Assembly: GCF_027531545.1 (NCBI RefSeq)
Contig: NZ_JAPZSC010000058.1
Span: 4,296 to 68,295, forward strand
Source of the DNA: Silanimonas sp.
GTDB taxonomy: Bacteria > Pseudomonadota > Gammaproteobacteria > Xanthomonadales > Xanthomonadaceae
DNA length: 64,000 bases
Direction of reading: 5' to 3'
Positions 44,543 through 51,224 of this stretch are shown here, piece by piece. Made by a program: the position numbers and the translations under genes. Positions within the stretch are counted from its first letter, which is position 1, and every line of letters starts with the position of its first letter. The notes beneath the pieces are model-generated. The model did no database searches, was not told the DNA's origin, and was given only the letters and a program-made list of their open reading frames with translations.

Positions 44543-45469
44543 ATGAGTAGCGGCGAACTCGACCTCAACGACCTGAAGCTGTTCGCCCTCGTCGTCGAGC
44601 ATGGCGGCTATGCCGCCGCCGAGCGCGCCTCCGGCGTGCCGAAGTCCCGGCTGTCGCGGCGCATCGCCCAGCTCGAGGAGGATTTCGGCGTCCGCCTGAT
44701 CCAGCGCTCGACGCGCAAGTTCGCGGTCACCGAGGTCGGCCAGAACGTCTTCAAGCACGCGCAGTCGATGCTGGCGCAAGCACAGGCCGCGCAGGAGGCG
44801 GTGCAGGTGCTCAGCGCCGAGCCGCGCGGCGTCGTGCGCGTGAGTTGCCCGGTCTCGCTGTCGCAGCGCCTGCTCTCGCGCGTGGTGCCGGGTTTCCTGA
44901 TCAAGCATCCGAAGGTGCGCCTGCAGGTGCACGTGGCGAACCGCCGCGTCGACGTGATCGAGGAAGGCTTCGACGTCGCCCTGCGCGTGCGCACCAAGCT
45001 GGATACCGACGGCGACCTCGCGATGCGCCGCTTCGGCGAATTCCGCGAGCTGCTGGTCGCCAGCCCGATCTACCTCGCCCGCCATGGCCGCCCCATCGAT
45101 CCGGAAGCCCTCGCGGACCACGTCACGCTGAGCATGAGCGAGGACGATGCGCGGCAGGTCTGGGAACTGCACGGCCCGAACGGCGAGACCCGCAAGGTCG
45201 AGATCAAGCCGCGCTTGATGGCGCTCGACTTCCCGCTGCTGCAGGAAGCCGCGATGGCCGGCATCGGCATCGCCCTGATGCCCGAGGCCGCCTGCGTCGA
45301 TGCCGTGCGCGCCGGGCGCCTCGAAGTGGTGATGCCGGCCTGGAGCCTGGAGCAGGGCATCTTCCACGCCGTGTTTCCCTCGCGACGCGGCCAGCTGCCG
45401 GCGGTGCGCGCCTTCATCGACCACATGGTCGAGGAGTTTCCGCGCCTGATGGGCGAGGCGAGGCTGTAA
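44543..45469 (+). CDS. LysR-family regulator (CrgA/DmlR-like)
   Basis: DLNDLKLF...AA...SRLSRRIAQLE...RLIQRSTRK; DVIEEGFDVALR. Confidence 0.93.
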   Translation: MSSGELDLNDLKLFALVVEHGGYAAAERASGVPKSRLSRRIAQLEEDFGVRLIQRSTRKFAVTEVGQNVFKHAQSMLAQAQAAQEAVQVLSAEPRGVVRVSCPVSLSQRLLSRVVPGFLIKHPKVRLQVHVANRRVDVIEEGFDVALRVRTKLDTDGDLAMRRFGEFRELLVASPIYLARHGRPIDPEALADHVTLSMSEDDARQVWELHGPNGETRKVEIKPRLMALDFPLLQEAAMAGIGIALMPEAACVDAVRAGRLEVVMPAWSLEQGIFHAVFPSRRGQLPAVRAFIDHMVEEFPRLMGEARL

Positions 45470-45520
45470 CGCAGGTTGCGGCTGCGGCCCAGGAAGGCCG
45501 CGGCTACAATGCCCGCACCC

Positions 45521-45610
45521 GGAGAGATGGCCGAGTGGTTTAAGGCAGCGGTCTTGAAAACCGCCGAAGGGTAAAACCTTCCGTGGGTTCGAATCCCACT
45601 CTCTCCGCCA
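45521..45610 (+). tRNA. tRNA-Ser, anticodon UGA
   Basis: Acceptor GGAGAGA/TCTCTCC plus G-CCA; anticodon arm GCGGT-CTTGAAA-ACCGC; long variable arm; GTTCGAAT T-loop. Confidence 0.98.
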
Positions 45611-45622
45611 CAAGAATAATAA

Positions 45623-45635
45623 AATCAATAACTTA
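45623..45635 (+). promoter_or_regulatory. IHF binding site
   Basis: AATCAA-TAAC-TTA, perfect WATCAANNNNTTR, 13 bp after the tRNA CCA. Confidence 0.75.
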
Positions 45636-45726
45636 ATTTGATCTTTCCGGTTGGCTTTGCCATAGCCTCTACCATCCCGGGATTGCTTGAAGATTGATGC
45701 CGGCGGGCGGCCCCAACTGTGGTCGC

Positions 45727-45753
45727 TTGTGAGCCCTTGTGAGCGATTGTGAG
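45727..45753 (+). repeat. Three direct heptamer repeats at 10-bp period
   Basis: TTGTGAG at 45727, 45737 and 45747. Confidence 0.9.
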
Positions 45754-45962
45754 GTTTGGAGAGGCGCGTGGGCCGGTAAGGAGGGTTGGCAGGGATAAAT
45801 GCATTTTTCACCCACAATCGGCGTAAGGCTCTGATTTGGAGGGCGTTATCTGTCAGCGATGCTTGAAGACGCTCAGCGTCGGCCGAGCCGCCAGGCCCCG
45901 CATCAAGTCCGTCTTGAACCACGTTGATCGCCCGTCTACGTCACTCGCAAGATCATTGCGTC

Positions 45963-46295
45963 ATGTACCAGCGTCTCGTCATCTTCGCGTGCCTGCTCGC
46001 CCTGATTCTGAGTCAGGTCGTGGCTTCGGCCGCGCCATTGGCGGAAATGACCTTGGAGGGCCTTGCCACCCCGGAAGCCCACTGCGCCGCGATGGCGGAG
46101 AACGTCGAGCAACCAGACGGCTCTACGTCTGAGCCTTGCACCTCGGCTTGCGAGGCGGCGTGCGCCGCCCCGGTTCTCGCGACCCTCACTAAGCCCAGGC
46201 TCACGTGCGGATCTCGCGCCGCACTCGTGGCTTCCAAACCAGCGGCCCTCGGCAGCCTCGCCAGTATCGTCGAACAGCGGCCTCCGATCGCCTAA
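45963..46295 (+). CDS. Small Cys-rich exported CopL/DUF2946-like leader protein ending RPPIA
   Basis: Hydrophobic N-terminus, CTSACEAAC, C-terminal EQRPPIA; no SD before ATG 45963. Confidence 0.65.
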   Translation: MYQRLVIFACLLALILSQVVASAAPLAEMTLEGLATPEAHCAAMAENVEQPDGSTSEPCTSACEAACAAPVLATLTKPRLTCGSRAALVASKPAALGSLASIVEQRPPIA

Positions 46296-46358
46296 CTCCA
46301 TTGGCCCCGCTGCGAACGCAGCGGCCCTGCCCTCCCGGGCTTCTGATGGAGTTTCTCG

Positions 46359-47021
46359 ATGTCTTTTTCTTTGCGGATGCTGGCCGTCACGGCCAGCGCC
46401 TTCTTCTGCGCGTCTGCAGCGCAGGCTCGGCCTGTCGGATACGCCGATGGGCACATGTTGATGGTTGATGCCAACGAAGACGTTCAGCAGGTGGCGTACA
46501 CGTACAGCCCCAGCTTCCGTTGGTCCGTATCGGGTGGTCATGCCCGGATGGAAAGCCTTGAGGGCGTCTCGGGGACCACGAGTGTGACTTTCGTGCGTGC
46601 TTCGAGGCTCCTGCAACGATGGAATCTGCCCAGCGCACAAGGCAACGCCTTCGTCTGGGCCGGCGTCGGCAACGCCCGATACGCGGGCCCCGCCGCCGGC
46701 CTTGGCAATGACGTCTGGCATGCCGGTCTCCAGCTCGACTTCGAGACGCGGCGGATCTATACAGCACTCGTTTCGGAGTACTTCGCCGCCGAAGGCTGGC
46801 ACCTCCGCAGTGACGTGGCGTCGTTTGGCGTCGCGCCGTATGAGCACGACATGGACCGAATGGCCACTTGGATCGTGCTGAAGGCGAAACGCACCTCGGG
46901 CATGCGGATGGACGAGGTCAATCGCGAGCTCGCCCTGCGGTTCTTCACCTCGACGTGGTGGATCGATGCCGGTATCGACCAAGACGGGCGTCCTGCCCTG
47001 AACCTGATGTTCAACTTCTAA
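46359..47021 (+). CDS. Uncharacterised exported protein, probable small outer-membrane beta-barrel
   Basis: Signal peptide ending AQA; alternating hydrophobic strands; C-terminal ALNLMFNF with terminal Phe. Confidence 0.65.
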   Translation: MSFSLRMLAVTASAFFCASAAQARPVGYADGHMLMVDANEDVQQVAYTYSPSFRWSVSGGHARMESLEGVSGTTSVTFVRASRLLQRWNLPSAQGNAFVWAGVGNARYAGPAAGLGNDVWHAGLQLDFETRRIYTALVSEYFAAEGWHLRSDVASFGVAPYEHDMDRMATWIVLKAKRTSGMRMDEVNRELALRFFTSTWWIDAGIDQDGRPALNLMFNF

Positions 47022-47048: not shown

Positions 47049-47372
47049 ATGAAGCGTTTCGCACTGTCCCTGATGCTCACCATCGCCGCCGGCACCGCCT
47101 CCGCCACCACGCTGAAGATGGAGGTGAATGGTCTCGTCTGCGCCTTCTGCGCCAACGGAATCACGCAGGCATTCACGAAGAAGCCTGAAGTCGCGGCCGT
47201 CCATGTCAGTCTGGAAGACCGCCTCGTCGCCATCGGACTGAAGGAGGGGCAGGATCTTTCTGATGCGGCGGTGACCGAATCGCTGAAGGAGGCCGGCTAC
47301 ACCGTGGTCTCTATCGAGCGCACAGAGCAGTCGGTCGCGGACATCAAGGCCGAGGTCGAACGTGGCGGGTGA
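47049..47372 (+). CDS. Periplasmic HMA-domain protein (MerP-like)
   Basis: Signal peptide; GLVCAFC; VSLE...AGY HMA fold. Confidence 0.85.
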   Translation: MKRFALSLMLTIAAGTASATTLKMEVNGLVCAFCANGITQAFTKKPEVAAVHVSLEDRLVAIGLKEGQDLSDAAVTESLKEAGYTVVSIERTEQSVADIKAEVERGG

Positions 47373-47801: not shown

Positions 47802-47996
47802 TCAATCAACGGTTCGGGCCTCGTACCCGGCGGCGCGTATCGCCTCGGCCAGAACGCGCGGGTCGGTATCGTCACTGCGGACCTCGCGCGTGGCGAGGTC
47901 GATGTCGATTTGATGGCCAGGAAGCGCCTTGTCGAACGCCGTCCGCAGCGTCTTGACGCAATGGCCGCAGGTCATTTGAGGGACATGGAAGCGCAT
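47802..47996 (-). CDS. copZ: Copper chaperone CopZ
   Basis: MRFHVPQMTCGHCV...IRAAGY, 64 aa; behind a CueR-type promoter. Confidence 0.85.
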   Translation of the reverse strand: MRFHVPQMTCGHCVKTLRTAFDKALPGHQIDIDLATREVRSDDTDPRVLAEAIRAAGYEARTVD

Positions 47997-48024
47997 GGTG
48001 AGGGCCTCTGGGTGGACTGAAAGC

Positions 48025-48055
48025 AGCGTGACCCTTCCCTTGGTGGGAAGGTCAA
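48025..48055 (-). promoter_or_regulatory. CueR-type promoter/operator for copZ
   Basis: Minus strand TTGACC-19 bp-CACGCT containing the dyad ACCTTCCC-N5-GGGAAGG. Confidence 0.85.
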
Positions 48056-48079
48056 GTTCGGCGGTCTTTGGGGGGGGGC

Positions 48080-48110
48080 TTGACCTTCCCATCATGGCAA
48101 GGCGGAGCCT
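48080..48110 (+). promoter_or_regulatory. CueR-type promoter/operator for copA-cueR
   Basis: TTGACC-19 bp-GAGCCT with the dyad ACCTTCCC-ATCAT-GGCAAGG. Confidence 0.8.
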
Positions 48111-50807: not shown

Positions 50808-51224
50808 ATGTCACCCGTCCGCACCCTGCTGCACCTGCTCCTCGCTGTGATCCTCGTGATCAACGGCGTTGCTGGCGTGGCCATGGCGGCGGGCATGGCT
50901 GGCCACGGGGCACCTGCGGATGCTCCGGCGGCTCTGGCATCCGAAACCCATGGCGGCTGCCACGACAGCGTCGCCGCAGCCCCAGCAGAAGCGGCAGACC
51001 ATCACTCCAGTGCCGCCACCGACTGCTGCGAGGACGGGCGCTGCGCTTGCGCCTGCATCCACCACGGCACCGTCGTGCTGGCCTCCGTCCCGCCGGTGGT
51101 GGTGGTGGCCGTTTGGCCGCCGGTGGCGGCACTCGATGTGACCGCGGCGTCCAGCGCGCCGCGCTCCCCCGGCCTCCGACCACCGATCGCACCGATCCTC
51201 CTGAGCGGGCGCCAAGCCCGCTGA
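50808..51224 (+). CDS. copL: CopL-family metal-binding leader protein
   Basis: Signal-like N-terminus; GGCHD...DCCEDGRCACACIHH; LRPPI near the C-terminus; heads the copper operon. Confidence 0.75.
   Translation: MSPVRTLLHLLLAVILVINGVAGVAMAAGMAGHGAPADAPAALASETHGGCHDSVAAAPAEAADHHSSAATDCCEDGRCACACIHHGTVVLASVPPVVVVAVWPPVAALDVTAASSAPRSPGLRPPIAPILLSGRQAR

Follow-up and report, generated by a model that had tools for sequence, protein, structure and literature searches.

In the 64,000 nt of Silanimonas sp. DNA analysed here (from here: the window), a short reading frame ahead of a barrel/MerP-like/MerT-like operon encodes a new, divergent member of the CopL-type leaders. Judged from sequence comparison, it belongs to the class formed by CopL, CutF and CruR and is no new kind of system. 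We consider it likely that this leader acts in cis, with a metal-tuned ribosome pause at an Arg-Pro-Pro (RPP) motif unmasking the barrel gene's Shine-Dalgarno (SD) sequence, as in CutF. CopL is a copper-resistance determinant in plant-associated Xanthomonadales. To our knowledge, two systems only, CruR and CutF, have been demonstrated to sense copper post-transcriptionally through nascent exported peptides. While the leader class is known, we refine here its spacer, the coupling between the anti-SD and the Pro-Pro (PP) codons, the codon bias at the motif and the leaderless starts.

The leader and the barrel gene are separated by an intergenic spacer of 63 nt (Table 1). Leader residues 2–23 are hydrophobic and are followed by an ASA-type cleavage site. 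When AlphaFold was run with the family alignment, a helix of residues 2–23 was the sole confident part of the model (pLDDT 93–94), with a pTM of 0.29. Both observations bear out the exported-type N-terminus that a preliminary description had seen, and beyond this signal helix the leader peptide is predicted to have no fold. Cys residues occur at positions 10, 41, 59, 63, 67 and 82, and the CxxxCxxxC cluster of the same description was found among them. The C-terminus reads Gln-Arg-Pro-Pro-Ile-Ala-TAA. The RPP motif had been placed four residues from the stop codon; it is indeed present, but two residues, Ile and Ala, lie between PP and the stop.

Table 1 Elements of the leader region and of the genes around it in the window
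Feature	Positions	Strand	Basis or remark
Leader ORF	45963..46295	+	ATG 45963, TAA 46293–46295; 110 aa; coordinates take in the stop codon
Alternative in-frame start of the leader ORF	TTG 45924	+	
Sec-type signal-peptide-like N-terminus of the leader, residues 1–23	45963..46031	+	AlphaFold helix, hydrophobicity
Leader Cys cluster C59-x3-C63-x3-C67, putative metal-binding site	46137..46163	+	Alignment
Arg-Pro-Pro codons CGG CCT CCG (R106 P107 P108), putative arrest site	46278..46286	+	
Closing helix, 5′ arm: Ile-Ala codons, stop, anti-SD CUCC (46296–46299)	46287..46304	+	Predicted fold
Inner hairpin 1, already seen in the preliminary description	46307..46324	+	Predicted fold
Inner hairpin 2, GCCC/GGGC	46329..46340	+	Predicted fold
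Closing helix, 3′ arm: SD GGAG (46348–46351), ATG of the barrel gene (46359–46361)	46343..46361	+	Predicted fold
Putative first regulated gene: 220-aa exported protein, C-terminal aromatic residue, outer-membrane-barrel-like	46359..47021	+	
Periplasmic HMA/MerP-like protein	47049..47372	+	
MerT-like membrane protein, CC motif in the first helix	47362..47751	+	NCBIfam matches, weak
Divergent CopZ-like gene	47802–48095	minus	P-type ATPase also follows the MerT-like gene
Second, canonical CopL	50808–51224	+	NF033807, 71.5 bits, HMM span 50823–51191; heads a TolC-like/multicopper-oxidase operon

The leader lacks an SD, as had been noted before: no match of at least 3 nt was found ahead of ATG 45963 or of TTG 45924. 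Its true start is ambiguous between these two positions, because the ATG of its nearest diverged relative (L020) aligns with TTG 45924. In two near-identical relatives, GTG replaces ATG 45963 and TTG 45924 is retained. Scans of the leader ORF against Pfam and NCBIfam gave no match (NCBIfam at E ≤ 1), and a search of 5.8 billion proteins returned two near-identical sequences and nothing else. A direct leader search of 151 family genomes yielded noise only. Since direct leader searches gave almost nothing, relatives were traced via the downstream barrel gene. Its 220-aa product, which has no Pfam match, has 420 relatives among the GTDB species genomes, mainly in Lysobacterales/Xanthomonadales and Nevskiales and some in Betaproteobacteria.

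We retrieved 80 loci, each encoding a relative of the 220-aa protein, and in 73 of them, distributed over several orders, a same-strand upstream ORF has PP within its last 10 residues. Together with the window copy this gives 74 leaders, 57 of which were aligned. The C-terminus consists of RPPI plus one residue and the stop codon in 54/74 leaders; the other endings are RPPNA, RPPSV, NPPPIx, DPPPIG and EPPR(V)A, and RPPAxxxS in Nevskiales. Six different codons are used for the Arg of the motif, four for the first and four for the second Pro, and this synonymous variation argues that selection acts on the peptide. The spacer between the last Cys of the cluster and the first Pro of PP measures 36–43 residues in 62/74 leaders. 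It has 40 residues in the window copy, counted from C67 because C82 is a lineage-specific extra. Mean column identity in the 57-leader alignment is as low as 21% and the linker sequence is not conserved; conservation is confined to the hydrophobic N-terminus and a PCH-like motif, together with the Cys cluster and both prolines. In this alignment, C41 and C63 never vary and C59 hardly does. Of 73 family members, 68 contain a hydrophobic 12-mer with a score above 2.0.

Among three near-identical strains, the leader differs by 8 nonsynonymous and 4 synonymous codon changes, compared with 2 and 9, respectively, in the barrel gene. The signal core, the Cys cluster and RPPI are unchanged in these strains. 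The sole change in the 63-nt spacer was found in the close relative L018, where C46322T leaves a G-U pair in the hairpin in place of G-C. Few fixed motifs, drift elsewhere and a predicted lack of structure are, as far as alignment and model can tell, the signature of a sensory leader peptide and not of a folded protein.

Of the seven exceptions among the 80 loci, four are betaproteobacterial leaders with PPL 10–11 residues before the stop. These (L048, L054, L069, L092) end in ...(S/A)PPLSI..CCFRI-stop or in ...APPLIVLFGRIRE-stop, with PP 10–11 residues from the stop codon, and precede the same barrel operon. Different leader families appear to have been joined to one and the same cargo. A paralogous leader/barrel/HMA/MerT-like operon (L017) exists in the window's own genome, on the minus strand of contig C63 at ~393.7–394.3 kb. 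Its barrel is 53% identical, and its leader has 134 aa and ends in LRPPIS-stop.

The NF033807 (CopL) HMM matched 44 of 57 syntenic orthologues of the window leader at E ≤ 0.1. The window leader itself gave no match to this HMM, for which the curated cut-off is 40 bits, and a six-frame search of the genome with NF033807 at E ≤ 10 recovered the second copy only (Table 1). In profile comparisons, the leader family matched the canonical CopL of the window with a probability of 97.8%, and the window ORF over its last 13 residues only, with a probability of 57%. Because the window copy has diverged too far for the HMM to recognise, we base its membership on synteny, on intermediates such as L020 and on the shared architecture.

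CopL was carried by 65 of the 201 genomes sampled in the order. All 29 HMM-defined CopL sequences sampled there end in RPP plus two residues and the stop codon, and the spacer measures 38–43 aa in 27/29. The window leader has the same ending, with RPP 40 residues past the Cys cluster, is of exported type and comes first in its operon. Like CopL of Xanthomonas and Stenotrophomonas, it is a small exported Cys/His-rich ORF at the head of a copper operon. It differs from CopL in its CxxxCxxxC cluster, the CopL pattern being CC...C.C.C, and in heading a barrel/MerP-like/MerT-like operon, whereas CopL heads copA, which encodes a multicopper oxidase. In 15/27 canonical CopL loci the SD is predicted to pair with the RPP codons themselves, while the anti-SD of the window leader lies after the stop codon. 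According to work cited in PMC9973294, the genes downstream of Xanthomonas copL need it in cis in order to be induced by copper.

Membership in DUF2946 (PF11162), the family of CruR, was considered and rejected: none of 57 family members matched, and there was no match in the six-frame translated genome at E ≤ 0.001. In hhalign, the leader family compared with four DUF2946 proteins gave a probability of 0.5%, and the window leader family shares no sequence or profile similarity with CruR/DUF2946. The four DUF2946 proteins compared end in RAPP plus 2–6 residues. The motif rule for DUF2946/CruR is CXXC and, 45 ± 2 residues apart from it, RAPP three residues from the C-terminus, while the window leader has CxxxCxxxC and an RPP without Ala, two residues from the end, with a spacer of 40. 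The closest known relatives are CopL (NF033807) and, functionally, CutF, and not CruR/DUF2946.

At the RNA level, the segment 46278–46364 has a predicted folding energy of −37.3 kcal/mol (z = −4.13), and 0 of 200 shuffled sequences were as stable. The predicted structure is a three-way junction with two inner hairpins. In its main closing helix, 46294–46304 pairs with 46343–46353, the 5′ strand beginning within the stop codon, and in a short extension the Ile-Ala codons (46287–46290) pair with 46357–46360, overlapping the start codon of the barrel gene. Counted from the first nucleotide of the last Pro codon, the 5′ arm starts at +3 and CUCC is located at +12 to +15. The hairpin at 46307–46324, which had been described as preceding the next ribosome binding site, is present and predicted to form, but that site is masked by the enclosing helix and not by the hairpin. 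In this model the enclosing helix, which conceals both the SD and the start codon of the barrel gene, is the functional RNA element. The two inner GC-rich hairpins were seen again in most relatives. The hairpin 46307–46324 was also considered as a terminator and discarded; it has no U tract, and the terminator scan lists none there. An Rfam scan found tRNA and nothing else.

For the whole family, folds were predicted from the Arg codon to the next start codon (n = 73 loci). The SD is paired in 70 of the 73, always with a partner between the RPP codons and 20 nt past the stop: in 18 loci the partner lies in the RPP codons, in 17 in the tail codons and in 35 between the stop and stop+20. Partners at −6 to +20 nt of the last Pro codon were found in 68/73 loci, compared with 29% of dinucleotide shuffles; these statistics are based on minimum free energy, hence on predicted folds of GC-rich RNA, and related loci are not independent. 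In Nevskiales, where five residues follow PP, anti-SD helices of 9–11 bp are formed inside the extra codons, 4–8 nt past the start of the last Pro codon. This location inside the tail codons argues that the anti-SD tracks the prolines and not the stop codon. The complementarity of the two arms beyond the SD core exceeded that of permuted locus pairs, with 0 of 5000 and 21 of 10,000 permutations reaching the observed value. RNAduplex energies of matched and mismatched arms differed little (−13.9 vs −12.2 kcal/mol), as all arms share the SD/anti-SD core and are GC-rich; therefore, register-anchored and fold-based tests were used instead. No consensus structure emerged when the spacers were aligned with MAFFT and analysed with RNAalifold, as both the arm offsets and the lengths of the inner hairpins are variable.

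The codons of the motif are biased. Among 54 distinct leaders, the Arg is encoded by CGA, AGA or AGG in 27, compared with 13% in the background, and the first Pro by CCT or CCA in 36, compared with 23% (the p-values for these biases ignore kinship among loci). No codon bias was found for the second Pro of the motif in the same 54 leaders. In the independent set of canonical CopL, the Arg codon is CGA in 13/29 and the first Pro codon CCT in 20/29. CCU followed by CCN spells CCUCC, an anti-SD, and dual coding therefore explains part of the bias. The RPP codons of the window copy contain such an anti-SD-like CCUCC. The excess of CCA falls outside dual coding and may be due to slow decoding or tRNA preference.

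The missing SD is, as far as the comparison goes, a family trait: 49 of the 73 leaders have no SD-like match. A TAnnnT hexamer ends 5–9 nt before the ATG in 48 of 68 relatives, compared with ~0.5 per position elsewhere. From this placement it follows that most relatives probably have leaderless mRNAs, which would explain the missing SD in them. The window copy lacks both an SD and the −10 box usual in its relatives, and a sigma-70 consensus scan of 45450–46450 found no promoter. We noticed a TGGCAG-N-TGCA element at 45786–45804 that is conserved between the window and L020 and looks sigma-54-like by eye; its GG-to-GC spacing is one nucleotide too long for sigma-54. Upstream of the leader ATG in relatives (among them L039, L063, L067, L071, L077, L082, L087 and L091), a TTG −35-like hexamer can be seen in 15 cases, in 10 of which it stands 19–20 nt from the −10 box. 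In L039 a CCCTGGA...TCCGGGG dyad is placed between −35 and −10, as in MerR/CueR-type promoters. This suggests that transcriptional control has been added to translational control in those relatives.

In the mechanism that we favour, the leader peptide would be synthesised and threaded into the Sec translocon by its signal sequence until peptide-bond formation becomes slow at Arg-Pro-Pro. At that point, the Cys cluster would lie 40 residues behind the peptidyl-transferase centre and be emerging from the exit tunnel at the translocon, and His40-Cys41, ~66 residues back, might already be outside the membrane. The pause would be prolonged by metal binding, by failed disulfide formation or by a failed pull by export. 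From general knowledge of footprints, a paused ribosome covers ~13–15 nt downstream. With the Pro108 codon (46284–46286) in the P site, this span would comprise the Ile-Ala-stop codons and CUCC at 46296–46299, that is, the 5′ strand of the SD-sequestering helix. For the duration of the pause, the SD would be free and a second ribosome could start on the barrel/MerP-like/MerT-like operon; without a pause, the leader would be completed, the ribosome would depart and the helix would re-form.

Stalling at RPP is inferred here from the comparison of leaders. The preliminary description had already proposed RPPI as a variant arrest motif through which metal binding or secretion may be coupled to operon expression; this is supported in that it agrees with every comparative test run, namely the conserved motif, the distance to the Cys cluster and the position of the anti-SD relative to the PP codons. 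The metal is most likely copper, judging from the neighbourhood: the operon belongs to a copper-resistance island that also holds copZ, genes for a P-type ATPase and a MerR-type regulator, and a multicopper-oxidase (MCO) operon headed by the second CopL. By analogy to CutF, the response would be on with metal.

Some points count against the pause reading. A ribosome that holds the last Pro codon in its P site would reach only the first few pairs of the anti-SD arm, and its full opening is an extrapolation from there. The helix would also be opened transiently by any ribosome reading to the stop. In addition, the window copy has no CopL HMM match, no SD and no −10 box.

Other readings were weighed as well. 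Coupling could be constitutive and free of sensing, any translation of the leader opening the helix, with RPP as a generic slow spot and the cysteines in another role. A ribosome terminating at 46293–46295 would span the entire 5′ arm, strong stalling is not seen with most RAPP-like sequences (PMC10987492), and the proline motif of CutF alone was no strong staller in a LepB fusion (PMC9973294). Left unexplained are the invariant Cys cluster, the 36–43-residue spacer and the signal peptide, and also that the anti-SD follows the PP codons and not the stop in longer tails. We regard such coupling as improbable, and a mechanism in the style of CruR as unlikely too, if a shade less so. In the latter, the ribosome stalled at RPP would shield the transcript from Rho, metal would relieve the stall, and Rho would terminate before the barrel gene, the operon being off with metal and the SD-masking helix secondary. 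CruR works in this way (PMC9426467), the region 46120–46357, from the 3′ half of the leader through the spacer, is C-rich and G-poor, like a rut site (C 0.40–0.42, G 0.26–0.28, C/G 1.45–1.65), and MerP/MerT-like proteins are importers in mer operons, for which a shut-off by excess metal would be sensible. However, the intergenic region with its 63 nt is short and strongly structured, the operon resides in the copper-resistance island described above, and Rho control needs no sequestration of the SD by the PP-adjacent segment, which is the feature conserved throughout the family. A CruR-like Rho mechanism may still act as an added layer upon SD unmasking.

We find it less credible still that the product is a free periplasmic metal-binding protein, a chaperone or a trans-acting regulator with RPPI serving protein-protein contact. 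The signal peptide and the Cys/His-rich mature part would suit such a role, as would the NCBIfam name 'CopL family metal-binding regulatory protein', but there is no predicted fold, the sequence drifts fast outside the motifs, the C-terminal motif is fixed relative to the RNA element and most relatives have no SD. Finally, many spurious ORFs overlap the region, and a frame with no SD, no family HMM match and two database homologues only might be a chance opening in GC-rich DNA and no gene. This view is refuted by the comparative data, with syntenic ORFs of the same architecture in 73/80 loci of several orders and synonymous variation at the motif codons, and we give it practically no chance.

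The pause proposed to unmask the barrel gene has its nearest functional counterpart in CutF of Rhodobacter capsulatus (cutFOG). There, the Sec-exported nascent peptide binds copper via CxxxC and stalls at a C-terminal proline motif, and the stalled ribosome opens a stem-loop by which the next gene's SD is shielded (PMC9973294; bioRxiv 10.1101/2025.02.05.636593). The window leader resembles CutF in its Sec signal peptide, its putative CxxxC metal site, its C-terminal proline motif and a short spacer with a predicted structure shielding the SD of the next gene; CutF acts in cis, as proposed for the window leader. By the published rule, 'CutF-like' leaders have fewer than 150 aa, PP in the last 15 residues, an N-terminal signal peptide and a same-strand gene at most 1000 nt downstream (PMC9973294). 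The window leader has 110 aa, PP at 107–108, a 63-nt spacer and a signal peptide as judged by hydrophobicity and model; a stem-loop shielding the SD of the next gene is there in the predicted fold. In contrast to CutF, which has PPP, belongs to DUF2946 and targets a Tat-exported multicopper oxidase, the window leader carries RPPI. Moreover, stalling and its dependence on EF-P have been shown for CutF, while for the window leader stalling is proposed.

The preliminary description had taken CruR as its model and rightly called it a copper-responsive upstream ORF of DUF2946 with a C-terminal RAPP (PMC9426467). Like CruR (Bp2923) of Bordetella pertussis, the window leader is an upstream ORF with an export signal, a Cys motif and a conserved spacer (45 residues in CruR) to an R-x-P-P-type motif near the C-terminus, and it stands first in a copper-related operon with a gene for an outer-membrane protein (PMC9426467). 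Unlike it, CruR has CXXC, RAPP, three residues after the motif and 162 nt to the next gene, and it works by Rho-dependent termination with copper relieving the arrest and with a dispensable signal peptide (PMC9426467). There is also a likeness to SecM, ApdA and ApdP, exported monitoring substrates whose C-terminal arrest opens the next ribosome binding site, as proposed here, and which have an Arg just before the prolines (PMC10987492; PMC10951299). However, peptides of that type sense export force and regulate Sec/YidC genes, with the motifs RAPP, RAGP, RAPG and RGPP (PMC10987492; PMC10951299). The motifs for which ribosome arrest has been demonstrated are RAPP, RAGP, RAPG, RGPP and PPP, a list that lacks RPPI, and most RAPP-like sequences from ordinary proteins did not cause stalling (PMC10987492).

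Tentatively, at somewhat less than even chance, we suggest that the CopL-type leaders, with no detectable homology to DUF2946, are an independent lineage of metal-sensing arrest peptides of a compact build. Most would have a leaderless mRNA, a Cys cluster ~41 residues (one exit-tunnel length) from RPP and an anti-SD either in the Pro-Pro codons (CCU CCN = CCUCC) or at the leading edge of the paused ribosome. If this is true, arrest site and RNA switch would coincide in a handful of nucleotides, which would also account in part for the strong bias in the Arg and first-Pro codons. The locus and its relatives represent a sharply defined design, with RPP plus two residues, a ~40-residue spacer, an anti-SD tied to PP and often a leaderless mRNA. 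One leader type is found on different cargo operons, encoding a multicopper oxidase, a TolC-like duct or a Mer-like envelope cassette. For annotation, a short 'hypothetical' ORF without SD such as this one is worth keeping, labelled as a regulatory leader.

Several further observations concern the neighbourhood. The window lacks a fourth small gene that many relatives, L015 and L016 among them, have downstream of the MerT-like gene and whose Cys-rich cytoplasmic product carries a GDCCVFC motif. A tRNA-Ser(TGA) is located upstream of the leader at a distance of ~350 nt, and three TTGTGAG repeats with a 10-bp period come after it (45521–45610, 45727–45757); the metal island may be an element integrated at this tRNA-Ser(TGA). 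The second CopL lies 4.5 kb downstream of the leader in the same window. There, RPPIA is followed by 10 more codons and not by the stop, and an anti-SD-like UCCUCC starts 13 nt after the first nucleotide of the last Pro codon, which is the same geometry as in the window leader.
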